A stretch of DNA of 64,000 nt, from sequence record OL631481.1. One strand, 5' to 3'. The position numbers and the translations under genes were made by a program. Under the pieces are notes generated by a model. The model had not been told where the DNA came from. It saw only the letters and a list, made by a program, of their open reading frames with translations, and ran no database searches. Positions 25,567-61,721 of the stretch are shown one piece after another (position 1 is the stretch's first letter; the number at the start of each line of letters is the position of its first letter). Origin of the DNA: Escherichia phage ECML-183-2.

Positions 25567-26109
25567 TCACAAATATCGTCTTTGCGGTATTTTGTCTGGG
25601 AAAAGTATTTCGATCAGTTTGTTATGATATTTACCTAAAAGATTTTGCCCTTTCCAGTTGACCGGATTTAGCACCCCTGGTTCATACATTCCCATTCCAA
25701 TACCGTAAACCTTATCGTAAGGACTTGCTTCAACAAACGTTTTGTATTGGTAAAGGTGTAAGTCTGCATACAAATCTGGATTCTGTACATATTTCAAGCA
25801 TAAACCTCGCATAACAATACGCTCACGGTTCTCTTCCCATACGTTGTTATCAAAATCCGACACTGCCCTACCCATACGTTTGTAATAAGCTTGAATCTTC
25901 TCATCTTTCCGTATCAAACTATGAGTCAGAATAGCCTGTGCAGTGTTGTGATCATTAAAAAGCAAAGCTTTACGCCACATTATGTATTGTTCGACACAAT
26001 TAAATGTCTGATTGTAACCTGGTTCGGTTTCTGTAAAGGGTGCAATATACCAATTACTAAAAACATCTTTATGTGAAAAGAAGAATACATAATCATCAGT
26101 TATTCGCAT
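25567..26109 (-). CDS. NADAR-domain protein (YbiA-like, DUF1768)
   Basis: YVFFFSHKDVFSNWYIAPF and EQYIMWRKALLF motifs typical of NADAR N-glycosidase domain. Confidence 0.6.
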   Translation of the reverse strand: MRITDDYVFFFSHKDVFSNWYIAPFTETEPGYNQTFNCVEQYIMWRKALLFNDHNTAQAILTHSLIRKDEKIQAYYKRMGRAVSDFDNNVWEENRERIVMRGLCLKYVQNPDLYADLHLYQYKTFVEASPYDKVYGIGMGMYEPGVLNPVNWKGQNLLGKYHNKLIEILFPDKIPQRRYL

Positions 26110-38852: not shown

Positions 38853-39403
38853 ACGTAGCTGTTATTGCTCAAGCTATTGATTACTACGGGCGATTTGCGG
38901 AGATGTTGGAAGTCCCTTATCTTGTAGATGCGGATATCCTTGCATATACATTACCAGAAGGTAAAGAGGATCGCCCCTTGGGGCATCCTAATGGTAAGTT
39001 CTACGTAGCCAGTGCAGAGCAGTCTTTCCTCCAGATGGAGAAAGATGGGTTTGAATTTTCAACAGATCATCCTTATATGGCTCTAACACCTTGCTACCGA
39101 ACAGAAGAAGAGTTGGATGATGCTCATTTTAACATTTTCTTAAAGTTGGAAATTATTGAGTTTTATCCAGGAGCGTCCGTCAAAGAATATGCCGAAACTA
39201 TGCGCTATTTCTTTTGGACGTATTACAAAGTTCAAACTCAAATCATAGAGACAGATATTGGTCTTGACGTGGAAGATATGTATGGGTTAGAATTAGGTTC
39301 GTTTGGGATGAGAACTTCTCCACAAGGTCATCCATATTTATACGCCACTGGTATCGCAGAGCCTAGGGCATCTATTGCAATAAAACGAGGAGGGTTATTA
39401 TGA
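38849..39403 (+). CDS. hypothetical protein (184 aa)
   Basis: CAGGAGGAAG RBS. Confidence 0.5.
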   Translation: MNVAVIAQAIDYYGRFAEMLEVPYLVDADILAYTLPEGKEDRPLGHPNGKFYVASAEQSFLQMEKDGFEFSTDHPYMALTPCYRTEEELDDAHFNIFLKLEIIEFYPGASVKEYAETMRYFFWTYYKVQTQIIETDIGLDVEDMYGLELGSFGMRTSPQGHPYLYATGIAEPRASIAIKRGGLL

Positions 39404-40761
39404 ATGTATATGCACATAAGCAAGATTTGGTAACAGCGGCAAACAATCGGGGCTTGTTCGATAGGCTTTGCAAAGCTATTGAGATTGCATATGGTTGGAC
39501 TAAAGAGACAGATCCTAAACTTACAGGACAATATGCTCTTTTACACGGTTGCACAAATTTTCCATACATCTGTCACACAGTCGGGACCGATGAATTTTCT
39601 GGAGAGCCGACAATAGGAGATAATGAACTACGTTTTACAGGAGATGCAATGCTAGATTTAATTTTTAAGAAAACTAAAATGCTAAAAATTGAAGATGTTT
39701 ACACAGACACTAGTAACCTTTCTGAAGAAGAAATTGGAGAAATGATTACTACTTTCAATAATACAACAGGGAAGAGTTTTTGGACTAAAAGCGATGCTTC
39801 CCGTCTTAAACGAGTAGACCCTGCTATTCCAGAAGACGGTAAGAAGTATCGAAAAGTTATCTTTTACGATAAAATGGCAGGTCTGGATGCTCTACATCTT
39901 GAGTGTGGAAGCCTTGTGCCTCCGGCTGTTAGAGAACATGAATTTGCAGTTGAGGTTGAAGCACAGGAGTTTAAAGATATGTTTTATACTAAGCATGTAA
40001 GAAAAGTGGAAGATGTGGAACAACAAAAAGAGACTTTTGAACCAGAAGACACAGAGCCTACCTATATTCCTAATACAGGTGTTATGCCTTCAGAAGATTT
40101 CGTGCAGGTTCGCTTCAACAACGGTAAAACAGAGGTTGCTAAGGGGACAGTATTCAACTGGAGTGTTGACAATAATCACGATCTGGAAGAATGGGCGATT
40201 AAAGAATACTTCATTCTCCCGCGCACGGCAAAATACAACTATCATAATGGTGGACACCGCCCTTGTGGTGGTCACGTAGAAGTTCTCTTCCGTGACGGAA
40301 CTACGGATAGTGGATCGGCTACGCATTTCACTTGGGGTCATCATGAACAGGATCGGGATATTGTTGGTTGGCTTCCAACTAACAACCCTAAACCACGTTA
40401 CCGCAAGCGTCGTCAGAAGCCGCCAGTAGGTAAGAAGAGTGTCGTTCGTGTCCTCTACACTACACAACAGACCTACACATTTAAAAATGTGGTAGACGTG
40501 CAAGTGACTGAGGAGCGAGTTTATATCCAATATGATCGTGAAGTTACAGAGGGTATCAAAGAATCGGTTACTACCGAAATTGAAAATAAGCTTGTTATGG
40601 CGATCATTGTGGAAGAAAGTAAAGTAGAGAACGGTAAAGCCTACACTGTTCGTGATAGCTTCTTGCGTAATATCGATGGAACTTGGGATTATAATGGACA
40701 TGATGGGACCGCTGTAAAGAACGGTAAGATTATGGGAAGACAATTCCTCTCCAAACGATAA
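39400..40761 (+). CDS. hypothetical protein (453 aa)
   Basis: long ORF; GAGGAGGG RBS; no recognised motif. Confidence 0.55.
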   Translation: MNVYAHKQDLVTAANNRGLFDRLCKAIEIAYGWTKETDPKLTGQYALLHGCTNFPYICHTVGTDEFSGEPTIGDNELRFTGDAMLDLIFKKTKMLKIEDVYTDTSNLSEEEIGEMITTFNNTTGKSFWTKSDASRLKRVDPAIPEDGKKYRKVIFYDKMAGLDALHLECGSLVPPAVREHEFAVEVEAQEFKDMFYTKHVRKVEDVEQQKETFEPEDTEPTYIPNTGVMPSEDFVQVRFNNGKTEVAKGTVFNWSVDNNHDLEEWAIKEYFILPRTAKYNYHNGGHRPCGGHVEVLFRDGTTDSGSATHFTWGHHEQDRDIVGWLPTNNPKPRYRKRRQKPPVGKKSVVRVLYTTQQTYTFKNVVDVQVTEERVYIQYDREVTEGIKESVTTEIENKLVMAIIVEESKVENGKAYTVRDSFLRNIDGTWDYNGHDGTAVKNGKIMGRQFLSKR

Positions 40762-40767
40762 AACTTA

Positions 40768-40792
40768 AAGGCGCACTTTGCGCCTTTTTTTG
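40768..40792 (+). terminator. rho-independent terminator
   Basis: GGCGC-acttt-GCGCC hairpin followed by seven T. Confidence 0.7.
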
Positions 40793-42677: not shown

Positions 42678-43144
42678 ATTTTGCAGGATATGAACCTGTA
42701 GATCTTATTAATGGTGAGGGAGTTAGGTGCTCCCTCTGGGTTAGTGGTTGTAGCCACGGTTGTCGTGGCTGTTTTAACCAAAAAGCCTGGTCTTATTCTT
42801 ATGGGAAACCGTTTACTGACGAAAATGTAGAGCAAGTTTTAAAAGATTTGTCAAGACCGTTTGTAAAAGGTTTAACAATTTTAGGAGGAGAACCATTAGA
42901 TCCGCAGAATATTCACAATGTTAAAAGCCTTATAGAAAAGGTTAGAGACGTTTATGGGTCAAGCAAAGATATAATGGTGTATACAGGATATACTTTTGAG
43001 GAAGTGCCTTTGTATATTAAAAATCTTGTTGACATTATTGTAGACGGAAAGTACGAAATAAACAATCCAACTACAAAACCTTTCAGAGGGTCAGATAATC
43101 AAAGATTATGGACCAAAACGGCAAGTGGTTGGCAATCAGATTAA
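42674..43144 (+). CDS. nrdG: anaerobic RNR activating protein (radical SAM)
   Basis: CSHGCRGC radical-SAM cysteine motif; TTG start overlapping nrdD stop. Confidence 0.75.
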   Translation: MNFAGYEPVDLINGEGVRCSLWVSGCSHGCRGCFNQKAWSYSYGKPFTDENVEQVLKDLSRPFVKGLTILGGEPLDPQNIHNVKSLIEKVRDVYGSSKDIMVYTGYTFEEVPLYIKNLVDIIVDGKYEINNPTTKPFRGSDNQRLWTKTASGWQSD

Positions 43145-43157
43145 CTTAGGAGGTTTC

Positions 43158-43349
43158 ATGGTTACATATTTTGCTGTAGGAGATAGAGTAGGGACGGCAG
43201 GAGAACTGTTGAAGAACAGTAATCGGGACGTTAAGGAGATTCTTGCAACCCTTGTGGATATTTTACAAAGAAAAGAGTTGCTTTCTGATCGAGATGTTGC
43301 TAAATTACTTGATATCGGAGGAGATGAACTTCAAAGACTTCCATTTTAA
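43158..43349 (+). CDS. hypothetical protein (63 aa)
   Basis: AGGAGG RBS. Confidence 0.45.
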   Translation: MVTYFAVGDRVGTAGELLKNSNRDVKEILATLVDILQRKELLSDRDVAKLLDIGGDELQRLPF

Positions 43350-43364
43350 GTGAGGAGATAAGTA

Positions 43365-43970
43365 ATGCAACATAGTGTAGTAGTCAACATGCCGAACAGC
43401 GGGGATAAATCTTTTGGTGTCCCTGCTAAAAAAGTGTGGAAAGCCCATTTTCATCTTACTTTATCTAACGTTAGTTCTGAAGAGTTGATGAAAGCAGCTA
43501 AGATTATTGGTGCCAAATGCACAACAATTGATTTACATCGGGATACAAAGTCTCAACGTGATCGTATGTTAACAAAGTATCAAAGCGATTTCGACACTAC
43601 TTTAATGTTGCAGTGTGTAGAAAAACTTGAGAATGCAGGTTTCAATGTTGTTCGTTACAAACTGGAACGAATGTTTAAACATGTTGCCTGTGTTCTTTTC
43701 ATGGATCTAAGCAAAGAAAATTATGGAGAAGTTCACATTAAGACTTCAGCAAGTGATCCCGAAGTAGAAACAAACTTCTTCCGTATTTCTTCTAATGCTG
43801 AAGAAATTGATTACCGATTTTATAATGCTCGCTTATATTCCGCAGAAGACAAGTTGCGTTTCAATGAAGCATATGATATGCTCTTGAACAGTGGGATACA
43901 GATAAAAGGCTACCACATAGAACAAGTTGTGGTAGACAGTAATCTTAACTTAGACGCATGGTGGGCTTAA
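43365..43970 (+). CDS. hypothetical protein (201 aa); weak 2H-phosphoesterase-like hint
   Basis: GAGGAGA RBS; single H-x-T-x motif (HFHLTL) only. Confidence 0.5.
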   Translation: MQHSVVVNMPNSGDKSFGVPAKKVWKAHFHLTLSNVSSEELMKAAKIIGAKCTTIDLHRDTKSQRDRMLTKYQSDFDTTLMLQCVEKLENAGFNVVRYKLERMFKHVACVLFMDLSKENYGEVHIKTSASDPEVETNFFRISSNAEEIDYRFYNARLYSAEDKLRFNEAYDMLLNSGIQIKGYHIEQVVVDSNLNLDAWWA

Positions 43971-43971
43971 T

Positions 43972-44628
43972 ATGACTATTAAACATATCTCTTTTGATGT
44001 ATGGAACACACTGATCACAGCAAACTCCAATTACGCAGACATGCGAGCCTGGACTATCGCAAAATATGGAGATATTACGGAAGTGGAAGCAAGAGCAGCT
44101 TATAAGAAGATCAAAAAGGAACTGGATAATGCAGCACTTCAAGGCAAAGCCGAGTGTGCAGCATACGCTTGGGAAAGACTTGGTTCTGAACTTGGGATAA
44201 CGCCTTGGAAGTCTGCAAAACTTCGTTTCGAGTGTGAACAGTGGTTCCTTAAGTTTCCACCACACGTAGCCGTGGATCTGCCGATGTACTTGCTGTATCT
44301 TTCAGGGCGTTATGATTTGAGTATTAAGAGCAATACCAACTTCATATCAGGGGATATCCTGCGTCGTGCTTGTAAGTTTGATAGTTGGAATTGTTTTGAG
44401 TTCACCCATTTCTCGGATGAAGCTTTACTTTGTAAACCAGATCCGCGATTCTTTGCTCGCACGCTCACGTATTCTCCGATCCCTCTGTTAGGGCACGAAG
44501 TATTGCACGTAGGCGATAGTGAAGAATATGATGGAAAATGTGTTGACTTAGGATTTAACTTCTGTCATATTAAGAACCCTAACGACTTACTAGAGAAACT
44601 TAAAAGAGGAGAAATTGTAAATGCGTAA
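43972..44628 (+). CDS. HAD-superfamily hydrolase-like protein
   Basis: motif I-like ISFDVWNTLI, motif III KPDPRFF, motif IV HVGDSEEYDG. Confidence 0.55.
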   Translation: MTIKHISFDVWNTLITANSNYADMRAWTIAKYGDITEVEARAAYKKIKKELDNAALQGKAECAAYAWERLGSELGITPWKSAKLRFECEQWFLKFPPHVAVDLPMYLLYLSGRYDLSIKSNTNFISGDILRRACKFDSWNCFEFTHFSDEALLCKPDPRFFARTLTYSPIPLLGHEVLHVGDSEEYDGKCVDLGFNFCHIKNPNDLLEKLKRGEIVNA

Positions 44629-45448
44629 TCAAACTCAAATTTTTGCAAATAAATTTGATGACCTGGAAACTGCTACTTTTGATATCCAAGATTATTCAAA
44701 ATTGAAATTTGGTAGTAACCAAGCTGCGCGTCGTATGGGTAAAGAATTGGCACTTCAGTTTTTTGCTCAAGTGGCAATGAAACATATTGGGGAACAATTT
44801 GTTATCATCCCTTCTCCTTATAACCATGTGCATAATGCTGCAACAATGATGACAGATCATTTTATTAATTACTTTAATATGTTGCAAGCACAATATGATC
44901 AAGGTCGTTCAGCAGAACTGGATATTATTCATCGTAAAGTTAGCTATATCAACGATTATGGTTTCTTGGATAAAGCTAGTCGTAAGAAACTTATTGATGG
45001 GGATACATTCTACTGCAACAAAGAATTCTGGGGTGATAAGAAGCTTGTGTTCATTGATGATGTAAATATCACCGGAACTCATGAAGACAAACTGATTGAG
45101 ATTCTTGATGAAAATCAAGTTAAAAATGATGTTTACTTCTTGTATTTTGCAAAATATGAAGGTAATCAAGCAGATACTGAAGCTAAACTGAATTTTAACT
45201 ACATCAATACACCAGAAGCGTTTGTTAAAATGATTAATGAAGAACGTGATGCACAGTGTCTTGTTCGTCCTATTAAGTATCTTATGGGCCAAAATCACGA
45301 AGACTTCAAAATCATTCTTAGCCAATTGCCACACTACTATGTAGAGCAACTTTTCTTCGGATGTTTGGGAGAAGGCTATAATCGAATTGCAAAGTATACT
45401 GAAAACTTTGAGTTCTTGGATCGCTACACAAAACAACATATTCTATAA
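44621..45448 (+). CDS. phosphoribosyltransferase (PRTase type I)-like protein
   Basis: KLVFIDDVNITGTH matches the PRPP-binding loop pattern of type I PRTases. Confidence 0.5.
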   Translation: MRNQTQIFANKFDDLETATFDIQDYSKLKFGSNQAARRMGKELALQFFAQVAMKHIGEQFVIIPSPYNHVHNAATMMTDHFINYFNMLQAQYDQGRSAELDIIHRKVSYINDYGFLDKASRKKLIDGDTFYCNKEFWGDKKLVFIDDVNITGTHEDKLIEILDENQVKNDVYFLYFAKYEGNQADTEAKLNFNYINTPEAFVKMINEERDAQCLVRPIKYLMGQNHEDFKIILSQLPHYYVEQLFFGCLGEGYNRIAKYTENFEFLDRYTKQHIL

Positions 45449-45457
45449 GGAGGAAAA

Positions 45458-45940
45458 ATGTTGAAGGTTGTTACTGGGAATCTGATCGATGCAGCGAAGA
45501 ATGGGGAAGTGAACGTTATAGCCCACTGTTGTAACTGTATGTGTAATATGGGTGCAGGGATTGCTCCGCAAATTAAACGAGCATTTCCTTATGCATATGC
45601 AGCCGACTTGGACACATCCGCAGGTGATCAAAGTAAGCTGGGTTCTTTTAGTTTAGGTGTGCCGGAGGAGGTGTCTGGCCCACTGGTTTATAACCTATAC
45701 GGACAGTACCGTTACGGGTATAACGGTAAAGGTCGTCAGTTGGACTATGATGCGCTGTATGATGCTCTTGAGGCTATGGCAAAGGATCTCCACAAATGGG
45801 TGAACACATCTGCCGAACATAAGATTGGTTTACCTATGATCGGAGCAGGGTTGGCAGGAGGTAATTGGGCTATCATCGAAGTGATGATTGAAGAAACTTT
45901 AGTAAAAGCAGGTCACGATGTGACTATTTATAAACTTTAA
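45458..45940 (+). CDS. macro-domain protein (ADP-ribose binding/processing)
   Basis: VNVIAHCCNCMCNMGAGIA and IGLPMIGAGLAGGNW resemble macro-domain ligand-binding loops. Confidence 0.65.
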   Translation: MLKVVTGNLIDAAKNGEVNVIAHCCNCMCNMGAGIAPQIKRAFPYAYAADLDTSAGDQSKLGSFSLGVPEEVSGPLVYNLYGQYRYGYNGKGRQLDYDALYDALEAMAKDLHKWVNTSAEHKIGLPMIGAGLAGGNWAIIEVMIEETLVKAGHDVTIYKL

Positions 45941-45952
45941 GAGGAGATTAGT

Positions 45953-46174
45953 ATGGGTGTTTTTGCAGGTATTGTTGCAGTGGTAAGCTTTTTTGTTATT
46001 GCTTTTATGCTTAGTTTGATTCCAGCTTGGTTACTGTTGCTGGCTTACAACTATGTTGCTGAAGTTATGGGTCATGCAGATATCACTGTCCCAGTAACCT
46101 TCTGGACCGTGGTTTGTGTTTCGTTTATTCTGGCGGTATTACGAGGAATCTTTTCCTCTCATTCAACAAAATAA
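45953..46174 (+). CDS. small membrane protein (73 aa, two TM helices)
   Basis: AAGAGGAGA RBS; hydrophobic. Confidence 0.5.
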   Translation: MGVFAGIVAVVSFFVIAFMLSLIPAWLLLLAYNYVAEVMGHADITVPVTFWTVVCVSFILAVLRGIFSSHSTK

Positions 46175-46177
46175 GTG

Positions 46178-46236
46178 TTGACATAGTTCTTAAAAAGAGT
46201 AAGATATATCACATGAAGCGGGGAATAGTTCCCCGC
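46178..46236 (+). promoter_or_regulatory. promoter plus leader-hairpin cassette (plus-strand copy) in front of TerC gene
   Basis: TTGACA-N16-TAAGAT, atatcACATGAAG, hairpin GCGGGGAATAGTTCCCCGC; same architecture as minus-strand array. Confidence 0.6.
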
Positions 46237-46253
46237 AAAGAGAGGAGAAAAGA

Positions 46254-47228
46254 ATGCAACTTGGTTTCCCAATTATCGATGTAGTTGTTTTAGTTGGTAT
46301 TTTGGCATTGTCTATTGGTATCGATTTCTTTGGTCATAAAGAGAATAAAGAAATTGGAATTAAATCTGCTTTGCTTTGGTCTGTTTTTTGGATTGCTTTA
46401 GCTTTAGGATATTACGCATTCATTTGGGTAGAACATGGTAAAGAGTTTGCCGCGCTTTTCCTAAGTGGCTATGTGTTGGAAAAGAGTCTTTCTGTAGATA
46501 ACCTAATGGTGTTCATGGCAATTTTTGCAAGCTTTGGAATTAAGAGCACACATCTCCAACATAAGATTTTACTTTGGGGTATTGCAGGTGCCATTGTCTT
46601 CCGAGGTGTTTTTGTTGCAGCAGGGACAGCTTTGTTTAACCTGCATTGGTCGGTCCAAGTGTTGTTCGGTTTGATTGTAGCTTGGTCTGCCGTTGCTATT
46701 ATCAAAGGTGGTGACGAAGAAGAGGATATTGATTACTCTAAGCATTGGGCTGTTCGTTTAGTAGGTAAAGTTCTGCCTGTTCACAATGCACTGGATGGGG
46801 AAAAGTTCATCACCATTAAGAATGGTATTAAATATGCAACTCCTGCTCTTCTTTGTGTGTTTGTTATCGAGCTTACAGATATTGTCTTCTCTTTTGATTC
46901 AGTTCCGGCTGTGATCGGTGTGACACAAGAACCTCTGCTAGTTTATTCTGCAATGCTGATGGCTGTTCTTGGTTTACGTGCACTTTTCTTTGTGTTAAGT
47001 GTAGCTGTGAAATATCTGGTTCACTTAGAGAAAGCTGTTGCTGTGGTTCTGGTGTTTGTTGGTGCTAAACTTATGTATCACCCGTTCGGTGAAACACTTC
47101 ATGCCAAGTGGTCATTCCTCCCGCATGATATTTCCCCTAACGTAAGTCTGATGATTGTTCTAGGCACATTAGCTCTTGGTGTTATTGCAAGCTTTATCTT
47201 CCCTGAAAAAGAAGAAGCTGCTGTTTAA
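46254..47228 (+). CDS. TerC-family integral membrane protein
   Basis: multiple TM helices; EKSLSVDN and ELTDIVFSFDSVPAV motifs. Confidence 0.75.
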   Translation: MQLGFPIIDVVVLVGILALSIGIDFFGHKENKEIGIKSALLWSVFWIALALGYYAFIWVEHGKEFAALFLSGYVLEKSLSVDNLMVFMAIFASFGIKSTHLQHKILLWGIAGAIVFRGVFVAAGTALFNLHWSVQVLFGLIVAWSAVAIIKGGDEEEDIDYSKHWAVRLVGKVLPVHNALDGEKFITIKNGIKYATPALLCVFVIELTDIVFSFDSVPAVIGVTQEPLLVYSAMLMAVLGLRALFFVLSVAVKYLVHLEKAVAVVLVFVGAKLMYHPFGETLHAKWSFLPHDISPNVSLMIVLGTLALGVIASFIFPEKEEAAV

Positions 47229-47234
47229 TAGATG

Positions 47235-47259
47235 AGCCTCCTTCGGGAGGCTATTTTAT
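47235..47259 (+). terminator. rho-independent terminator
   Basis: AGCCTCC-ttcg-GGAGGCT hairpin followed by ATTTTAT. Confidence 0.6.
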
Positions 47260-47270
47260 AGGAGAGACTT

Positions 47271-47621
47271 ATGAATAATTTTGATGAAATTCAAGAACTT
47301 GTTTGGGATTTATCTGGTGATGTGGATTACGTTTTAGATTATCTTTCAAAAGTTTACCCTGGGGTAAGCGTTATGATCGTGACCAAAGATCCAATTAATT
47401 TGCCTCCTAATGTTGTAGCTTGTTGTGGAAGTGGTTCAGGAGAAGTAGAGCCTGTATCTCGTTGGGAATTAACTAAAGCTGTTTCAAAACGAAACGGTGA
47501 AGTTTTGAATATTGATATCGAACAAATATGGACTTCTCCAGCAGCCAAATGGAACGATCCAAATGGTTGGGATTTGTTCTTCTGGGATAATGAAACTGAT
47601 GATGAGGTATTTTTAAAATGA
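47271..47621 (+). CDS. hypothetical protein (116 aa)
   Basis: AGGAGAGA RBS. Confidence 0.5.
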   Translation: MNNFDEIQELVWDLSGDVDYVLDYLSKVYPGVSVMIVTKDPINLPPNVVACCGSGSGEVEPVSRWELTKAVSKRNGEVLNIDIEQIWTSPAAKWNDPNGWDLFFWDNETDDEVFLK

Positions 47622-48853: not shown

Positions 48854-49444
48854 ATGCATACCGAGAGAGACTTGCAACTCTTGTGGTGGGAAGTGATGCA
48901 GGAAATAAAAGAAGATTTTCCTGTTTACTACAACATGTTACGTGAAGCAGGATATAAAGCTTGTGTTAGAAACAAAGTTAATAACTCTTTCGGTTGGTGC
49001 AACTACCGAGATAAAATTGTTGTTGTAAATTGGCACTTGCATAAGAACTCTACAAGAGATATGATCGTGGATACAATGAAGCACGAAATTGCTCATGCTA
49101 TTGATGGTTGTATGGGTAAGTTTAGTCGGCACGGTGCTCATTGGCAAAAACTGGCAGCAGAATTAGGAGCTAATCCTAAAGCCACTTCCAAAGAGCCGTT
49201 GAACCACGAATATAAATATGTTCTTGTTCTGGTAGATAGGTTTGCGACAAGATGTGTTAGAGGTTATAATCGTAAACCTAATCGCATGTACCCAGGCAAG
49301 CAACCTAACATGTGGTTGAAATCAGATAAAGAAGGAACTGAAGGAAAATTATGGTTGTATAAATGGGATGATTGGGTTAAAGTAGCTAAAGAGTACGGTG
49401 TTTCACCATATATAAGAGATGCAGAAGAGGAGAATGAAGAATGA
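48854..49444 (+). CDS. SprT-like zinc metallopeptidase-domain protein
   Basis: HEIAHAI HExxH motif followed by GAHWQKL. Confidence 0.55.
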   Translation: MHTERDLQLLWWEVMQEIKEDFPVYYNMLREAGYKACVRNKVNNSFGWCNYRDKIVVVNWHLHKNSTRDMIVDTMKHEIAHAIDGCMGKFSRHGAHWQKLAAELGANPKATSKEPLNHEYKYVLVLVDRFATRCVRGYNRKPNRMYPGKQPNMWLKSDKEGTEGKLWLYKWDDWVKVAKEYGVSPYIRDAEEENEE

Positions 49445-50553
49445 CAAGTCCATTTTTAAAAGCAGCTACTGGTGGTCAGAAGAAGTCTGAAATGAGTGTA
49501 TTCGCTGCAACAACAGATGCAAGTAAATCTGTATTTGCTCCAAGTGTGTTAGATGCCAGTCCTGTTTATGCACCAGCAGCACCGCAAGAAGTTCCAGTTT
49601 TACCTTCTATGACCCGACAAGAGATCGAAGAGATTGGGGCAGAGGCAGGCACAACCTTGCGTTCCTTGAATGCCGAGGTATTAAAACATCAACGTAGTAA
49701 TCAAGGCGATCAGATGAGTGAACGACTCACAGCTTTGATTAAACAGGCAAAACAACTTGATCCAAACTCTATTAAACAAAGCAAAGGTATTACTAAACTC
49801 ATTAAAAAAGTTATGGGTATGAAAGAAGACCTGTTTGGGGAGTTTGATAATGTTAATAACCGTATTGAAGAGTTGGTAAAGAACCTTCAAATGGATATTC
49901 GCAAAGAAGAAGATTCCTTGGTATATCTTGAAAAACTACATCAAGCTATTGGACAATATGCTGCAAGTTTGAACCGAGATATGCAGCTTCTAACAGCAAC
50001 CTATGAAAAAGAAGAACAAGCTTTAGCTGCTCTTCCAGAAGATGCAGTAGAACAGCGACAAGTGATCCGAGACACTTTGGATCTTCTGGAGATTCGTATT
50101 GCAGATTTAAAGGCATTGCGTCTACTGTGTGTCCAAATGGGACCGCGTGTACAAGGTATGCAAAAAGTTTCTGCAAGCTTAATGCGATCTGCGCGTAACA
50201 TAGTAAATAATGTTATTCCTGCTTACTCTGCTAACTTCTCAATGTATATTGAAAGCTTACGTCAAATGAAAGCCGCAGAGACGCAGAATAACGTTCTTGA
50301 TGAATTTAACCTGGCAATTAAACTGGGTAGCGATCTTGCCACACAGAATCAGATCGAAGCAGCAGCCCTGGCTAACCGTCAAGTGCTCGATATTGAAACT
50401 CTGCGTCACGATCAGGAAAACTTGGTTAAAATGTTGGAAGAAACTAACCGCATCAATACGGAAGCCCGTGCTGCTCGTGTTGATTATATTAATGAAGTTC
50501 AATCTCTGGAAGACGGGATGGTAGCTGCTGTGAAACGAGGGCTTGGTAAATGA
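49441..50553 (+). CDS. TelA-like (toxic anion resistance family) protein
   Basis: 370 aa, all-helical; conserved-looking RQVLDIETLR segment; neighbours TerC/TerD/vWA genes. Confidence 0.5.
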   Translation: MTSPFLKAATGGQKKSEMSVFAATTDASKSVFAPSVLDASPVYAPAAPQEVPVLPSMTRQEIEEIGAEAGTTLRSLNAEVLKHQRSNQGDQMSERLTALIKQAKQLDPNSIKQSKGITKLIKKVMGMKEDLFGEFDNVNNRIEELVKNLQMDIRKEEDSLVYLEKLHQAIGQYAASLNRDMQLLTATYEKEEQALAALPEDAVEQRQVIRDTLDLLEIRIADLKALRLLCVQMGPRVQGMQKVSASLMRSARNIVNNVIPAYSANFSMYIESLRQMKAAETQNNVLDEFNLAIKLGSDLATQNQIEAAALANRQVLDIETLRHDQENLVKMLEETNRINTEARAARVDYINEVQSLEDGMVAAVKRGLGK

Positions 50554-51948: not shown

Positions 51949-52743
51949 ATGTCCGAGAAAATCAGCCTGAAAAAACGTCAAGAAAACCTTGCTTTCTCTC
52001 TGAAAAAGAATAAGAACCTGAATGAAGGTAAGATTGTTCTTCGTGTAGCATGTGCTCTAGATATTTCTGGTAGTATGCACGGTCTATATTCTAGTGGGGT
52101 AGTGAGTGATTTTGTAGGTAAACTGCTTCCTTTTGGTATGCTGTTCGACGATAATCAACAAATTGATATGTGGGCCTTCAATACGAGTTCCCAAGAGCTT
52201 ACTCCAGCAACAGCAGACGTTTACGATGACTATGTTGGTAAATGTATGCGTAATGTTCGTATCGGAGGTGGAACAAATTACGCCCCTGTAATGGCAGATA
52301 TCTACGATGAGTATTTTGGCACTGTTACCAAATATATTACCACTAAACAAGTGGTACAAGAGGAGGCTCCAAAGAAAGGCTTCTTTAATCGTCTGCTTGG
52401 TAAAACTGAAACAGTGTCTGTAGAGCGTGAAAAAGTTGTAGCTGTATCTGAACCAGGTGCTGATGTTACCCCTGGTGTTGTATTCTTCCAGACGGATGGT
52501 GAGAATGGTGATCCTAGTGCTGTTCGTCGTCTTATTGAAGAGAATAAGAATAAACCTATTTATTGGTTCATGGTTGGCGTTGGTAATGAGAAGTTTGGCT
52601 TCCTGAAAGAACTGGCAAATGCTTATGATAATGTTGGTTTTATTGGCATTAAAGATTTAGACTTGACAGATTCAGAACTTTATGACAAACTCTTATCTGA
52701 GGAGTTCGGAGAGTGGGTTGTTAAAGTAGGTGCTAAAAAATGA
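51949..52743 (+). CDS. vWA-domain protein (TerY-like)
   Basis: MIDAS motif DISGSM; GGTNYAPVM; sits in ter-like cluster. Confidence 0.65.
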   Translation: MSEKISLKKRQENLAFSLKKNKNLNEGKIVLRVACALDISGSMHGLYSSGVVSDFVGKLLPFGMLFDDNQQIDMWAFNTSSQELTPATADVYDDYVGKCMRNVRIGGGTNYAPVMADIYDEYFGTVTKYITTKQVVQEEAPKKGFFNRLLGKTETVSVEREKVVAVSEPGADVTPGVVFFQTDGENGDPSAVRRLIEENKNKPIYWFMVGVGNEKFGFLKELANAYDNVGFIGIKDLDLTDSELYDKLLSEEFGEWVVKVGAKK

Positions 52744-53253: not shown

Positions 53254-53856
53254 ATGACTGATAAAATTTCCCTGAAAAAAGGCTCTAGCGAAAAAATTTC
53301 CCTGAAGAAAGTTGCTCCGGCTCTGAAAGAACTGCGCCTGGAATTCTCTTGGAAATCTGATTCTAAACTGGATCTGGATGTAAGTGCACTGGTTTGTCGT
53401 CATAATGCCGCTGGCAATCCTGAAATGCTGTCCGCACGTCATCTGGTTTGCTATGCTAACAAGTTTGATCCTGAACGTTCTACCTTCGCTGGTGACGATG
53501 TTCGTGATGGAACTGGGAGCATGGAGCAGATTGATATTACTCTGGCTAAAATCTCTCCTGATGCACAAGAGATTGCCTTTGTTCTGACCATTGATGATGA
53601 TACAGGTCTGAAACGTTTTGGTCATGCTTCTGAAGGTATGCTTAAAATCTTCGATTCCGAGCGCAATGTGGAAATTCTGGATTTTGACTTCCTGGCTCCT
53701 GAAGTAGCTGGCAACACAATCTGCCACGTGGCTTCCCTGGTTCGTGAAGATGGGGAATGGAAGCTGAAAGCATATGGTGTAGGTAAAGCTGGTCTGGATA
53801 TTTGCGATGTGGTGATGGCCTTCGGTGGTAAAAAAGAATGGTATGAATGTCCATAA
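53254..53856 (+). CDS. TerD-domain protein
   Basis: ISLKK...LDLDVSALV...GDDVRDGTG...FVLTIDD pattern typical of TerD; strongly host-like codon usage (CTG, AAA, GAA). Confidence 0.75.
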   Translation: MTDKISLKKGSSEKISLKKVAPALKELRLEFSWKSDSKLDLDVSALVCRHNAAGNPEMLSARHLVCYANKFDPERSTFAGDDVRDGTGSMEQIDITLAKISPDAQEIAFVLTIDDDTGLKRFGHASEGMLKIFDSERNVEILDFDFLAPEVAGNTICHVASLVREDGEWKLKAYGVGKAGLDICDVVMAFGGKKEWYECP

Positions 53857-55178: not shown

Positions 55179-55742
55179 ATGATTTATTATATTACTCCCT
55201 ATCTGACAGGAAATATCGGCAAGGCTATCAATGAAGCCATTGCCGTTCTTCCAGATGATAGTTGGGTGTGTTTAAGAGATACCGATACAATGTTCCTCCT
55301 ACCTGATCAACCATCTATGCTTGAAGAGCTTGTTATGTCAAACCCGCCTTTTGATGTAATAGGTGCAACTTGTAACAGGTTAGGTAGTGGTTATCAGCTT
55401 TTCTCTAACCAAATTAACGATGATCCAGATATTCTAAACCATATAGAATATGCTAAGATTGCAAGAGAATATCATAAAGTGAGTGTTGAAGAAGTTCCTT
55501 TCGGAACACCTCTGGCAGGTTTCTTTTTGCTTTTTAGAAAATCATTGTGGAATGAAATTCCTTTCGAAGAAAAATCTATCCAATTCGACTTAATTTTCTC
55601 TCGCACTTTACATGAAAAAGGAAAGAGGTTAGGATTGATGCGGGGAATGTATCTGTTTCACATTTACAGATTAGGTCAAACAAATCCTCAACGGTCTATA
55701 CATCATTTATTACACTGTCATGATCACAGTAAAACTATTTAG
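55179..55742 (+). CDS. putative glycosyltransferase (GT-A-like)
   Basis: LRDTDTMF DxD-like motif; GGGGAGA RBS. Confidence 0.4.
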   Translation: MIYYITPYLTGNIGKAINEAIAVLPDDSWVCLRDTDTMFLLPDQPSMLEELVMSNPPFDVIGATCNRLGSGYQLFSNQINDDPDILNHIEYAKIAREYHKVSVEEVPFGTPLAGFFLLFRKSLWNEIPFEEKSIQFDLIFSRTLHEKGKRLGLMRGMYLFHIYRLGQTNPQRSIHHLLHCHDHSKTI

Positions 55743-55750
55743 GAGAGAAA

Positions 55751-56434
55751 ATGGAAAATATTAAAATCGGAGTGGGTGTTATCACTGTAGGTGTCCGTCC
55801 GCTTAAAGACTACCTTGTAACAGATCCACGTGCAGATTTTCGAGTATTCAACGATCCAGATCGTAAAGGTGTAGCTTATGCCAGGAATGAACTTATGCAC
55901 CAGTTTTATGAAGAAGGTTATGATTATTGGTTTATTTTTGACGACGATTGCTACCCAGTCATGGAAGGATGGGAAACATACTTTGTAGATCAAGCTGTTT
56001 CTGGAGGATGGGATTTCTTTGGTATGCCGGAGTACTTCAAAGATAAAGTTGTTGGAAGCAAAGGAGAAGTTATTCTCTGGGAACTTGCAATGTGTCAATT
56101 TGCAATGTATTCTCGTGCCGTTGTTGAGAAGATGGGTTATTTCCGCCCTTACACTCACGGTTATGGTTTTGAAGATGCCGAATGGGGACACCGTTTGAAA
56201 GCTGCTGGTTTGAATCATGGTATTCAGGCAACACCTTGTCCGCTTCGTATCATGGCTTATATCCACCCAGACGATGTTTTTGGAAACAATCCTATGCCTT
56301 TTGCTAATCTGACAAAAGAAGAGAAAGAAGCTGCTATTGGGATTAACTGGGAAGAATATAAAGCATCTTTAGAGGATATTAAAAATGGGAAAATCCGAAT
56401 TTCTTATGAGGAGGCACTAGCACATGTCAAATAA
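55751..56434 (+). CDS. glycosyltransferase family 2-like protein
   Basis: FIFDDDCYP (DxD) and GYGFEDAEWGHRL motifs. Confidence 0.6.
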   Translation: MENIKIGVGVITVGVRPLKDYLVTDPRADFRVFNDPDRKGVAYARNELMHQFYEEGYDYWFIFDDDCYPVMEGWETYFVDQAVSGGWDFFGMPEYFKDKVVGSKGEVILWELAMCQFAMYSRAVVEKMGYFRPYTHGYGFEDAEWGHRLKAAGLNHGIQATPCPLRIMAYIHPDDVFGNNPMPFANLTKEEKEAAIGINWEEYKASLEDIKNGKIRISYEEALAHVK

Positions 56435-57371
56435 AAAATGGACTAAACTGAAAATTGATGCAAAACCCCACAGTGGTTGTGATTATCATCGTATTGTTAT
56501 ACCATTTAACAACAATAATTTTCAGCCTAAGAAAGATGTTGTCGTGTTTAACCGTATTCATTCTAAAGGGGCAGAATACGTTCTGTCCCTGAAACGTCAA
56601 GGTGTTAAGATTGTTGTAGATTTAGATGATTTCTACCAACTTAATCCAGAACATTATTTAGCAAGTTTATATGAGTCAAACACTCGTGCTATTGTAGCTA
56701 TGGTTAAGCTTGCCGATGTGGTCATTGTGACTACGGAATATTTGGCATATAAGATCCGTCACTTAAATAGGAATGTTGTTGTAATCCGAAATGCACTTCC
56801 TTTTGATAGCGGACAATTTACTTTGTCAAATGACCGTTCATCCGGTACCCCTATTGTATGGGCTGGAGGTGCTAGTCATGAACCTGATTTACGACTAGTC
56901 TCTAACACTTTTGATGATGAACTTCTTACTATTGCGGGGTATGAAGCTTCGCAGAGTATCACAGGGCAAGAGTGGATTAAGATCCGTAGAAATTTACCAA
57001 ATGCCAAATATAAAGCTGCTGTAAAAGATTTAGATAATTACATGAGTGTTTACGAAAGTCATGCTATTGCTATAGCTCCTTTGGTAGACAATGATTTTAA
57101 TAATTGTAAAAGTAATCTCAAAATCCTTGAAGCTGGGGCAAAAGGTATTCCGATTGTTTGTTCTAAGGTATTACCTTATTTTAACCCTGTAGATGCTCGC
57201 GCTGTTGCTTATGCAGAGAATAAAGCAGAATGGCATTACGAAATTGTTAAGCTTCTTCGCAATCCGAACTATCGGGAAGATCGCGGCTTGTTCTTAGCGG
57301 AACATGTTCGAACACATTATAATCTGGCAGATGCAAACGAATTGCGACGCCAGGTTATTGAAAGTTTGTAG
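56424..57371 (+). CDS. GT-B fold glycosyltransferase (paralog 1)
   Basis: C-terminal NNCKSNLKILEAGAKGIPIV motif; paralog of 57379-58323. Confidence 0.55.
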   Translation: MSNKKWTKLKIDAKPHSGCDYHRIVIPFNNNNFQPKKDVVVFNRIHSKGAEYVLSLKRQGVKIVVDLDDFYQLNPEHYLASLYESNTRAIVAMVKLADVVIVTTEYLAYKIRHLNRNVVVIRNALPFDSGQFTLSNDRSSGTPIVWAGGASHEPDLRLVSNTFDDELLTIAGYEASQSITGQEWIKIRRNLPNAKYKAAVKDLDNYMSVYESHAIAIAPLVDNDFNNCKSNLKILEAGAKGIPIVCSKVLPYFNPVDARAVAYAENKAEWHYEIVKLLRNPNYREDRGLFLAEHVRTHYNLADANELRRQVIESL

Positions 57372-57378
57372 GTGAAGT

Positions 57379-58323
57379 ATGGGACAAATAATTCTTGACA
57401 ATCGTAACGGAATCAATTATAGTGTCTGCGATTTCCATAGGGTATTGCTGCCTTACTCAAGGCAGTTCTCTTCACAACCTAAACACAACGTTTTCGTTTT
57501 TAACGGAGTGCCAACAAAAGGTAAAGAGGGCTTTTTAGCCCTTAAAAACCTAGGTTTTAAAATGGTTATGGATTTGGATGACTCGTTAGTTATTCCAAAA
57601 GGACACATGTTAGAAGGTATTTTTGAATCAGGTATTCGTGAACATTTAAAATGGTTTTTAGAGCACAGCGATCTTGTTACAACTACGACACCTGCTTTGC
57701 AAGTTGAACTTTCACAATACAATGATAATGTGCACATAATCCCTAATGGACTTCCTTACGATGAAGGTCAATTTGTGTTGACCCGTGATCGCTACTCCAA
57801 AACTCCATTAGTCTGGGCTGGAAGTGAAACACATAAACAAGATTTGGCTATCTTGCCCGATTTTGGTAAAGATCTTACAATATGTGGTTTTCGTAGGGAT
57901 TCTGAAGTTTTAAGTAGTCGTGAATGGTCTGTAATCAGAGAAAATGTAGCACCAACTTGTGTTTATGAAGGTGTAAGACCATATGCCAACTACATGGAAT
58001 CTTACGATGGTCATCAAATCAGTCTTGCACCATTGATCGATAACGTGTTTAATAATGCAAAAAGCAATCTTAAAATTCTTGAGGCAGGTGCTAAGGGTTT
58101 ACCTTTAATCTGCTCTCCTCGTGAGAATTATCATACACAAGAGTTTAAAGATTTGTTATTCTTTGCTGAAACACCTTCCGAGTGGAAAGATATTACGGAA
58201 TACTTATTAAGTGCTCCCGATGTTTGCATGGAGAAAGGATTAGCATTAGCTAAGTATGTCAGGACTCATTATCACATTGATGTGTTGAATGAGCGTCGTA
58301 GACTTTTATTTGAGGAGCTATAA
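57379..58323 (+). CDS. GT-B fold glycosyltransferase (paralog 2)
   Basis: NNAKSNLKILEAGAKGLPLI motif; collinear similarity with 56424-57371. Confidence 0.55.
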   Translation: MGQIILDNRNGINYSVCDFHRVLLPYSRQFSSQPKHNVFVFNGVPTKGKEGFLALKNLGFKMVMDLDDSLVIPKGHMLEGIFESGIREHLKWFLEHSDLVTTTTPALQVELSQYNDNVHIIPNGLPYDEGQFVLTRDRYSKTPLVWAGSETHKQDLAILPDFGKDLTICGFRRDSEVLSSREWSVIRENVAPTCVYEGVRPYANYMESYDGHQISLAPLIDNVFNNAKSNLKILEAGAKGLPLICSPRENYHTQEFKDLLFFAETPSEWKDITEYLLSAPDVCMEKGLALAKYVRTHYHIDVLNERRRLLFEEL

Positions 58324-60926: not shown

Positions 60927-61721
60927 TTGAGCAAGTTGAACACACTTGATCAATATTACACTAACCCCGCTTATGCGGGGTTCTTATGTGATAAGATCAA
61001 AGAAATTTTTGGAGAGGAAGCTAACTACGTAGAACCATCTGCGGGAGAAGGAGCTTTCTCTTCTTGTTTTAAAAACATAACTTCTTTTGATATTGACCCT
61101 AAGTTTGAAGATTGTATTGAGGCAGATTTTTTAGCTCAATCTGTTGAGTCTGTTGGTAGTGTAACTGCTTTTGTCGGTAATCCTCCGTTTGGAAAAAATG
61201 CTAGTCTTGCCATTAAGTTCTTTAACCATTGTGCTGAAATGTTGGATAACGAAGGTGGTATTTGTTTTATCTTGCCTCGCACATTTCAAAAAATCTTTTT
61301 TGCACACAAATTAAATCCCCATATGCATCTTCTTTACGAAGAAGAATGTCCAAAAGGATCTTTTATTCTTCATGGAGAACCTTGGGATGTTCCTTGTGTA
61401 TTCCAGATATGGATTAAACGCAATGAGAAGCGTTCTCCTGTTGTTTTAGGAGAGAATCGACTATTCGTATTAGGCAACAGTAAAGACTACGACATAGCCG
61501 TTAGGAGAGCGGGAGCAAGTGCAGGTAAAGTGTTATCAGAAGAAGATTCTTTATCTGAAGCATCTACCTATTTTTTAAAAGCCTTGACTTCTGATCTTAA
61601 AACGCGTATCATTGAGGCTTACCCGTTACTTAAAGCTGAAGCTAGTAAAACTGCGGGAGTAAGAAGTTTAAGTTTAAAAGAACTTCAGTGGGTTCTGGAG
61701 AACATTAGAAAGGAGGAATAG
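60927..61721 (+). CDS. DNA methyltransferase (amino-methyltransferase with NPPF motif, probably N6-adenine)
   Basis: TTG start after AAGGAGG; motif I EPSAGEGAF and motif IV NPPF. Confidence 0.7.
   Translation: MSKLNTLDQYYTNPAYAGFLCDKIKEIFGEEANYVEPSAGEGAFSSCFKNITSFDIDPKFEDCIEADFLAQSVESVGSVTAFVGNPPFGKNASLAIKFFNHCAEMLDNEGGICFILPRTFQKIFFAHKLNPHMHLLYEEECPKGSFILHGEPWDVPCVFQIWIKRNEKRSPVVLGENRLFVLGNSKDYDIAVRRAGASAGKVLSEEDSLSEASTYFLKALTSDLKTRIIEAYPLLKAEASKTAGVRSLSLKELQWVLENIRKEE

Follow-up and report, generated by a model that had tools for sequence, protein, structure and literature searches.

The T4 gene tk.4 is the only gene of that phage that becomes conditionally essential on DarTG2, and its clean knockout was sensitised; the HIDEN-SEQ preprint that describes this named the gene adfM, for anti-DarT factor Macrodomain (10.1101/2025.11.20.689424). 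The AdfM of a chimallivirus (PhiKZ gp104) removes DarT2 marks in vitro and protects against DarTG2 (PMC13309987). TARG1, DarG and SCO6735 erase thymidine-linked ADP-ribose (T-ADPr) on DNA and uracil-linked ADP-ribose (U-ADPr) on RNA (PMC13036486). SCO6735 takes thymidine-linked ADP-ribose off single-stranded DNA and protects against DarT without a Lys/Asp dyad; the Q85A mutation abolishes its activity, and N27, H24 and G128 matter as well (PMC9411070). These characterised relatives (SCO6735, DarG, TARG1 and PhiKZ AdfM) erase base-linked ADP-ribose from nucleic acid, not free metabolites. Here we describe a macro-domain gene of Escherichia phage ECML-183-2 (sequence record OL631481.1), which lies in the 64,000-nucleotide stretch that we analysed (the window, 64 kb of a ~150 kb genome). 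Homology and context suggest that its product is probably an orphan, DarG-like ADP-ribosyl glycohydrolase of the AdfM family that undoes the ADP-ribosylation of thymidines in phage DNA by DarT2-type toxins. The gene and its conserved parts are located as follows.

45458 to 45940, + strand: stand-alone macro-domain gene of the AdfM/Tk.4 family with an SCO6735-type active site, 160 aa, ATG start.
45448 to 45453, + strand: Shine-Dalgarno AGGAGG, read from the sequence, 4 nt 5' of the ATG and overlapping the stop codon of the upstream phosphoribosyltransferase (PRTase) gene.
45524 to 45565, + strand: codons H23-C-C-N26-C-M-C-N-M-G-A-G-I-A36, the conserved His and Asn (SCO6735 H24, N27) and Gly-rich loop 1.
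45704 to 45706, + strand: codon Q83, at the position of TARG1 K84, DarG K80 and SCO6735 Q85 ('..ITK' in TARG1, '..IGQ' in SCO6735).
45833 to 45868, + strand: codons P126-MIGAGLAGGNW137, the diphosphate-binding loop 2, with A133 at the TARG1 D125 position.

An earlier note, made from the letters of this DNA alone, had proposed a stand-alone macro-domain protein here. A 160-aa open reading frame (ORF) with an ATG start does occupy exactly 45458-45940 (+), and the motifs quoted for it, NMGAGIA (residues 30-36) and IGAGLAGGNW (residues 128-137), are both found, in the two Gly-rich loops NMGAGIA (30-36) and PMIGAGLAGGNW (126-137), which in macro domains hold the diphosphate and the distal ribose of ADP-ribose. 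The match to Pfam PF01661 (Macro) is marginal when taken alone (22.9 bits, the gathering cutoff being 22.0; E=8.9e-5 over residues 23-138). PHROG 335 matched the protein at E=2e-57, and the PADLOC DarG hidden Markov model (HMM) matched at E=6e-12 over the whole macro domain (HMM positions 1-144 of 329). We aligned 47 homologues for conservation and used the same alignment for an AlphaFold2 model, which had a predicted local distance difference test score (pLDDT) of 93.2 and a predicted template modelling (TM) score of 0.90. The model is predicted to form the three-layer alpha/beta/alpha macro fold with a central mixed sheet, and Foldseek matched it in the PDB to TARG1, BT1257, DarG, Poa1p and SCO6735 with a probability of 1.0 (TM 0.7-0.86), the alphavirus and coronavirus macro domains ranking below these. 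G34, G129, G131 and G135 are invariant in the 47 homologues. Pfam, PHROG 335, the PADLOC HMM, the model and Foldseek thus agree with the earlier claim; neither a non-macro fold nor a loss of ligand-binding residues was found, the binding loops being intact. The 160-aa protein is a stand-alone single-domain macro protein. It also comes from a real gene, not a chance ORF, because it matches 1,759 database clusters at E<=1e-3, because its family was found by tblastn in 2,966 of 50,697 phage records, and because the ratio of nonsynonymous to synonymous substitution rates (dN/dS) is 0.09 against the alternative allele described below.

Megablast of 43300-47300 matched 76 phage records, 70 of them with at least 80% query cover at 90-97% identity, and nearly all are Escherichia phages of the genus Phapecoctavirus (Stephanstirmvirinae; phAPEC8-like myoviruses of ~150 kb). 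By these matches the window is a Phapecoctavirus, and the macro gene lies in a lytic coliphage genome. A genome-contig search with one protein as query returned only near-identical phage-derived contigs.

To place the protein among macro domains, we ranked solved proteins with the family profile, and found BT1257 (7e-24), SCO6735 (2e-21) and TARG1 (3e-17) at the top, followed at lower ranks by T. aquaticus DarG (2e-12), M. tuberculosis DarG (8e-11) and Poa1p (2e-9). This ranking puts the family in the ALC1-like/TARG1-like class, nearer to BT1257, SCO6735, TARG1 and DarG than to MacroD, PARG or the viral macro domains. HMMER alignments placed Q83 on TARG1 K84 (equivalent to DarG K80 and SCO6735 Q85) and A133 on TARG1 D125, and the TARG1-type catalytic Lys84/Asp125 dyad is therefore absent, Q83 and A133 standing at the aligned positions. 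The equivalents of SCO6735 H24, N27 and Q85 are all present as H23, N26 and Q83. Q83, N26, G129, G131, G135 and W137 do not vary among the 47 homologues, at least 90% of which keep H23. Since Q83, N26 and H23 match the residues that SCO6735 needs and the TARG1 dyad is missing, the macro protein has an SCO6735-type active site. Q83 is followed by a basic mobile loop (R85, K91, R93) that matches the one of SCO6735 in length. The two lysines that position DNA in SCO6735 are replaced (K34 by A33, K89 by G87), and K93 corresponds to K91. T4 AdfM carries Ser in place of K34 and Gln at the catalytic position (NLYTQ); because T4 Tk.4 also lacks K34, the absence of the K34 and K89 lysines does not argue against function.

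SCO6735 (PDB 5E3B) and BT1257 (2FG1/2AFC) are the closest solved sequences and share with the phage protein the His, the Asn, the Gln, the GLAGG stretch and the equal-length mobile loop. However, the identity is ~29%, SCO6735 is a cellular, DNA-damage-regulated protein, and BT1257 is functionally uncharacterised. TARG1/C6orf130 (4J5S) was the top Foldseek match (E=6e-12, TM 0.76-0.86) and has the MGAGIA loop in common, but it carries the K84/D125 dyad where the phage protein has Q83/A133. DarG (T. aquaticus 5M31/5M3E, M. tuberculosis 5M3I) shares the ALC1-like macro class and the fold, whereas its catalytic residue is Lys (K80) and not Gln, and it has in addition a C-terminal DarT-binding domain. 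That domain is absent from the phage protein, which is not a full-length DarG: NCBIfam DarG (NF048014) scored 42.5 bits against a cutoff of 250, with the match confined to the N-terminal macro part. A PADLOC scan of the neighbouring proteins gave no DarT match. The macro gene thus appears to be an orphan antitoxin-like gene, with one domain and without a neighbouring DarT.

The comparison with T4 Tk.4 gave 34% identity by BLASTP (E=1e-21) and full-length homology. Tk.4 and the window protein are both in PHROG 335 (1e-65 and 2e-57), and both match the PADLOC DarG HMM over the entire macro domain. Each is a stand-alone protein of ~155-160 aa with the HxCNC...MGxG and GAGxxxGNW loops, and the catalytic Gln stands in NLYTQ in T4 and in NLYGQ here. 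The two differ in their surroundings, which are the tk/vs region in T4 and an nrdDG-HAD-PRTase-Ter block in the window, and the DarTG2 phenotype is known for T4 only. PhiKZ gp104, compared by its published description, is likewise an orphan phage macrodomain but has a catalytic Lys (K78) where the window protein has Gln. RefSeq and PHROG label the family 'phosphatase'; the label was carried over from an old motif-based annotation of T4 Tk.4, and we correct it here. The macro family, its fold and the annotation of a HAD, PRTase and macro trio in phage Bas60 were already public, as was the AdfM function of homologues (2025-2026).

The gene was then compared among closely related phages, which revealed two alleles and one variable patch.

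45770 to 45820, + strand: hypervariable patch, residues 105-121 (end of helix 4 and the next loop), in which the rare allele of the window differs from the one common in Phapecoctavirus and which includes a 3-aa indel.

The close phages EF1-1 and ukendt share 99-100% of the nucleotides in the flanks, whereas identity falls to 73-81% exactly within the macro ORF. The opposite pattern was seen against an IMG/VR phage (L013) that is otherwise 72-78% identical but reaches 94-98% over the initial 300 nt of the macro gene. The window allele (at least 95% amino acid identity) occurs in 4 phage records and an 80-90% identical allele in 66. The two alleles differ with a synonymous divergence (dS) of 1.25 and a dN/dS of 0.09, and the active site is unchanged; the differences cluster in residues 105-121, which are also the lowest-confidence block of the model (pLDDT 70). 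The HAD gene (43972-44628) shows an independent gene-precise swap, seen against locus L008. By these comparisons the macro gene is an old, functional, recombining allele cassette that is exchanged with gene precision under purifying selection. Because the swapping is gene-precise, with an allele dS above 1 between flanks that are 99-100% identical, the macro locus is suggested to be a recombination hotspot and may be in an arms race.

The same window carries a second gene that bears on ADP-ribosylation.

25567 to 26109, - strand: NADAR gene, 180 aa, found by local tblastn (Pfam NADAR E=1.6e-34).

Its product is 58% identical to bas60_0111 (AdfN-Bas60), which is an experimentally validated anti-DarT1 factor (PMC11825919). 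Bas60 (Escherichia phage PaulScherrer) belongs to Justusliebigvirus, a sister genus within Stephanstirmvirinae. Its HAD-PRTase-macro genes sit at the orthologous position, with bas60_0070 annotated as 'putative macrodomain protein' and bas60_0071 and bas60_0072 as phosphoribosyltransferase and HAD, but its macro protein is 49% identical to that of the window and has 244 aa, with an N-terminal extension of ~85 aa that the window protein does not have. This extension of the Justusliebigvirus macro proteins gave no Pfam match (L003 7851-8110; L114 9888-10622 region). The NADAR gene of Phapecoctaviruses likewise falls into allele classes, with 4 records at least 99% identical to that of the window, 25 at 95-99% and 32 at 80-90%. 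The window NADAR is likely a functionally parallel orphan antitoxin-like gene, and its pairing with the macro gene mirrors T4, which carries both AdfN and AdfM.

In the mechanism that we propose, the DarT2 of a DarTG2-type E. coli host would spend NAD+ (nicotinamide adenine dinucleotide) to ADP-ribosylate thymidines in single-stranded phage DNA, and this modification would block replication or packaging. The two Gly-rich loops of the phage macro enzyme would bind the ADP-ribose, and the base-ribose bond would be hydrolysed. Q83, positioned by N26 and H23, would orient the substrate and a water, with no catalytic Lys involved. ADP-ribose would thereby be set free and the phage DNA restored. As substrate we propose T-ADPr DNA, with U-ADPr RNA or Glu/Asp-ADPr protein as further possibilities; the anti-DarT2 role in vivo is put forward on the same terms. 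The earlier note had suggested a counter-defence role tied to NAD+-consuming immunity, and by analogy with the T4 relative, which is needed against DarTG2, this is the best reading.

The fold, the family membership, the conserved active site, the strong purifying selection and the AdfN homologue in the genome are directly supported. Several points weigh against an anti-DarT2 function. SCO6735 K34 is Ala in the macro protein (A33), and the protein is acidic overall (isoelectric point 5.5). The H23 register of Poa1p and a Ser, Thr or Asn at position 30 are, as we take it, common to the family, and phosphatase-type chemistry would then be possible. The gene holds its place in the HAD-PRTase-Ter block across the subfamily, and many distant macro homologues lie in NAD-salvage islands, both of which also fit a small-molecule role. 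The protein shares no more than 34% identity with its validated T4 counterpart. The evidence for T4 Tk.4 is itself a preprint with a genetic phenotype only (10.1101/2025.11.20.689424).

The protein could instead erase another ADP-ribosylation, on protein (Glu/Asp-ADPr) or on RNA (U-ADPr or other), placed there by a host ADP-ribosyltransferase (ART) other than DarT2 or by a phage ART. Indeed, SCO6735 and TARG1 also clear Glu/Asp-linked ADP-ribose from protein and uracil-linked ADP-ribose from RNA (PMC9411070, PMC13036486), and RNA-targeting ART defences such as CmdTAC exist. We nevertheless consider this unlikely: the phenotypes of phage members in vivo are known only against DarTG2 (10.1101/2025.11.20.689424, PMC13309987), the adenine ADP-ribosylation by CmdT is described as irreversible (PMC13036486), and no ART gene was seen beside the macro gene in the 64 kb covered of the ~150 kb genome.

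A different kind of alternative arises from the genes around the macro gene, which are the following.

43365 to 43970, + strand: 201-aa protein gene, directly 5' of the HAD gene.
43972 to 44628, + strand: HAD-like gene with motif I DVWNT (DxW); context, not macro function.
44621 to 45448, + strand: PRTase_3/ComF-like gene; context, with HAD a conserved Ter-associated pair.
45953 to 46174, + strand: small membrane protein gene (73 aa), 3' of the macro gene; context.
46254 to 47228, + strand: TerC/Alx, 3' of the macro gene; context.

The close packing behind HAD-like and PRTase-like genes that the earlier note had reported is there, and so are the identities it gave them. The PRTase gene stops with TAA at 45446-45448, leaving 9 nt before the macro gene, and it shares an 8 nt overlap with the HAD gene. 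The HAD-like protein is weak in Pfam and matches a PHROG 'hydrolase' at E=3e-117, and the PRTase_3/ComF-like protein matches PF15610 at E=1e-41. The 73-aa membrane protein gene starts 12 nt after the macro gene, with TerC next. Strong intrinsic terminators were found at 40767-40787 and at 47235-47252, the latter 3' of TerC. Between 40787 and 47235 on the + strand, we found no terminator-like site with a convincing T-tail; a weak site at 42680-42702 in the nrdD/nrdG overlap has 3 GC pairs and no T-run. Because no convincing + strand terminator separates them, nrdD-nrdG-orf63-orf201-HAD-PRTase-macro-TM-TerC look like one transcription unit, judged from the terminator pattern. Only the terminators were used for this, as a promoter scan gave 17 sites against 21 expected in shuffled sequence, which is no enrichment.

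The founding paper on Ter systems is Anantharaman et al. 2012, cited here through Iyer et al. 2021 (PMC7824862). In the latter description, phage Ter systems include a PRTase and a HAD enzyme for 'signal biosynthesis'. The genes around the macro gene resemble the published phage Ter systems (PMC7824862) in having HAD, PRTase_3, TerC, TelA, vWA-TerF and TerD, but the macro domain is not listed as a component in that description. The set in the window is near-complete, with TerC/Alx at 46254-47228, TelA, vWA-TerF-like and TerD genes at 49441-50553, 51949-52743 and 53254-53856, and PRTase_3/HAD; a gene for an SprT-like metallopeptidase lies at 48854-49444, just 5' of TelA. A PDB sequence search with the PRTase gave no match. 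Motif I of the HAD-like partner, S-x-D-V-W-N-T-L, is invariant, and its Trp stands two residues after the nucleophile Asp, where HAD phosphatases have the acid/base Asp. Because of this Trp at the general acid/base position, the HAD-like partner may not be a conventional phosphatase.

From this neighbourhood, the earlier note had drawn a single pathway in which HAD, PRTase and macro enzymes act on a phosphoribosyl or ADP-ribosyl compound, for instance to recycle a breakdown product of NAD+. We collected PRTase_3 loci from GenBank phages, IMG/VR and assemblies, fetched flanks of 8-10 kb, and looked for macro genes by both tblastn and the family HMM; a genome-contig profile search with PRTase_3 returned mostly phage-sized contigs. 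HAD was immediately upstream of PRTase_3 in every locus examined. The macro gene was found only at loci whose PRTase is at least 62% identical (Stephanstirmvirinae-like phages), and none of 20 distinct HAD-PRTase_3 lineages outside Stephanstirmvirinae had a macro gene in the fetched flanks by either method. Co-occurrence of macro with PRTase_3/HAD was thus not seen in independent lineages. Ter genes (TerC, TerD, TelA or vWA-TerF) were near the pair in 8 of the 20 distant loci; the unrelated lineages with Ter genes beside PRTase_3/HAD include L019, L021, L022 and L115-L118. The macro family, for its part, was found in 2,966 phage records and PRTase_3 in 156, a difference of ~20-fold, and the macro carriers include T4-like phages, Felixounavirus, Vequintavirus, Pakpunavirus and Kuttervirus. 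The proposed common pathway is therefore not supported, with 20 distant pairs lacking macro and 2,966 records set against 156. Since the pair occurs without macro elsewhere, macro is far commoner, and the characterised relatives act on ADP-ribosylated DNA, the adjacency appears to be a lineage-specific juxtaposition in one phage subfamily. We conclude that HAD-PRTase_3 is part of the Ter module, whereas macro is an accessory gene of its own that shares the block. We read its position behind HAD/PRTase_3 as probable co-transcription in an accessory-gene block, not as a common pathway.

Taken as a rival explanation, that idea makes the macro protein a metabolite enzyme coupled to HAD/PRTase_3 (and to MazG in some relatives), acting on a phosphoribosyl- or ADP-ribose-like molecule such as a 'nucleoside-like' Ter metabolite or in NAD+/ADP-ribose recycling. 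The macro gene is closely packed and apparently co-transcribed with HAD and PRTase_3, and the order HAD-PRTase-(MazG-like)-macro-TerC is shared by three clades, Phapecoctavirus, Justusliebigvirus and one more, at protein identities of 49-65%, although synteny within one subfamily can reflect plain inheritance. The trio order is also found in VEcB, and a MazG-like gene stands between PRTase and macro in three loci. In the third Stephanstirmvirinae-like clade, this is a 184-aa MazG-like gene (PHROG 1247; L030 6457-7011, L040, L047) that overlaps the macro start. In a 153-kb relative, on the other hand, the macro gene stays near TerC and HAD-PRTase lies ~10 kb away. Macro is present in 0 of the 20 HAD-PRTase_3 loci outside the subfamily (fetched flanks), PRTase_3 is found in just 5 of the 80 IMG/VR loci with the closest macro homologues, the macro and HAD genes have been swapped independently as separate alleles, and T4 has the macro gene without HAD and PRTase_3 in the 10-kb region examined.

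The same 80 IMG/VR loci, surveyed for their neighbourhoods, show a residual link to NAD. NAMPT was present in 29, NMNAT/Nudix in 24, SIR2 in 22 and Prs in 22; NADAR was directly upstream of macro in 19, and HAD_SAK_2 downstream in 17. Many of the 80 loci probably represent one large clade, besides which there are a few with another arrangement (L066, L101, L111). On large uncultured phage contigs (L028, L029 and ~25 of L033-L112), macro homologues of 40-53% identity lie in islands of the order NMNAT/Nudix-NAMPT-NADAR-macro-HAD_SAK_2-SIR2-Prs-Thg1. The islands fit an NAD/ADP-ribose-centred counter-defence, and the adjacency of NADAR and macro supports the anti-DarT function. A coupled metabolite enzyme can draw on the same islands, in which distant macro homologues lie between NAMPT and HAD_SAK_2 together with NMNAT/Nudix, Prs and SIR2, and on the 4 of 17 distant loci in which HAD-PRTase_3 has NMNAT/Nudix, NadR/PnuC or NAMPT close by. 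The pair lies beside NMNAT/Nudix in L006, ~4 kb from NadR-like/PnuC in L005 (both Rhizobium phages), and 3-8 kb from NAMPT in L019 and L022. We also considered PRTase_3 as a stand-in for NAMPT in an NAD-salvage (NARP2-like) route and rejected it, as L019 and L022 carry both. There are hints that the product of the HAD-PRTase_3 pair may touch NAD or nucleotide metabolism, and this residual NAD connection may leave room for metabolic coupling. With the points on both sides taken into account, we regard a coupled metabolite enzyme as quite unlikely.

More doubtful still is that the macro gene was recruited into the Stephanstirmvirinae Ter/PRTase_3/HAD (and MazG) module to process a phosphoribosyl- or ADP-ribose-derived molecule, either by maturing or degrading a Ter metabolite or by feeding ADP-ribose from modified DNA to the phosphoribosyl pyrophosphate/NAD pool. 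If so, DNA de-ADP-ribosylation would be linked to a phage-run nucleotide-signal or NAD-economy pathway, and the NAMPT-macro-HAD placement in the NAD islands of unrelated phages would follow the same logic with different parts.

Behind the 'phosphatase' label stands the idea that by-products are cleared by a Poa1p-like enzyme, either an ADP-ribose-1''-phosphate phosphatase or an O-acetyl-ADP-ribose deacetylase. Poa1p matched in sequence (2e-9) and in Foldseek (probability 1.0), its register is presumably identical over H23...N30...GxGIA, its PDB entries include H23A and S30A mutants (H23 is present here, and position 30 is Asn, or Thr in most of the family), RefSeq and PHROG name the family 'phosphatase', and SIR2 genes, which make O-acetyl-ADP-ribose, occur in the NAD islands of distant homologues. 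This is the least likely of the alternatives and highly improbable, as Poa1p is the most distant of the ALC1-like matches, the window yielded neither a Tpt1/KptA or 2H phosphoesterase gene nor a tRNA gene (ARAGORN, run for an RNA-repair context, gave no tRNA), the upstream 201-aa protein does not have a 2H fold, and the label is a motif-based legacy from T4 Tk.4, which now has an anti-DarT2 phenotype.

Other genes of the window deserve mention. The 201-aa protein (43365-43970) has 34 database clusters only, mostly on short or phage-sized contigs. It is predicted to have a tandem ferredoxin-like fold with no PDB relative, with H28, H30, T32, E122, H124 and K126 invariant, and two PADLOC 'AbiEi' antitoxin HMMs match residues 29-200 (E=6e-13 and 3e-12), so that a further orphan antitoxin-like gene is conceivable here. 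Related RefSeq records name the 453-aa ORF at 39400-40761 (+), 5' of nrdD, a 'ribonucleotide reductase'; Pfam gave it no match at E<=1, and that label looks unsupported. A 264-aa ORF at 60927-61721 (+) has an NPPF motif (VGNPPFGK, read by eye) that is typical of N6-adenine DNA methyltransferases. Four ORFs at 55179-58323 (+) lie 5' of it; the first two align with EF1-1 genes annotated as glycosyltransferases, and the other two are unannotated.

PhAPEC8-like coliphages are frequent phage-therapy candidates. If the macro protein is indeed an eraser of DarT2-type marks, these phages would carry two orphan antitoxin-like erasers, with NADAR covering the guanine marks of DarT1 and the macro protein covering the thymine marks of DarT2, and thus both known DarTG types. 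In that case, we propose, this pairing would help to predict the host range of phAPEC8-like coliphages on DarTG-positive E. coli.

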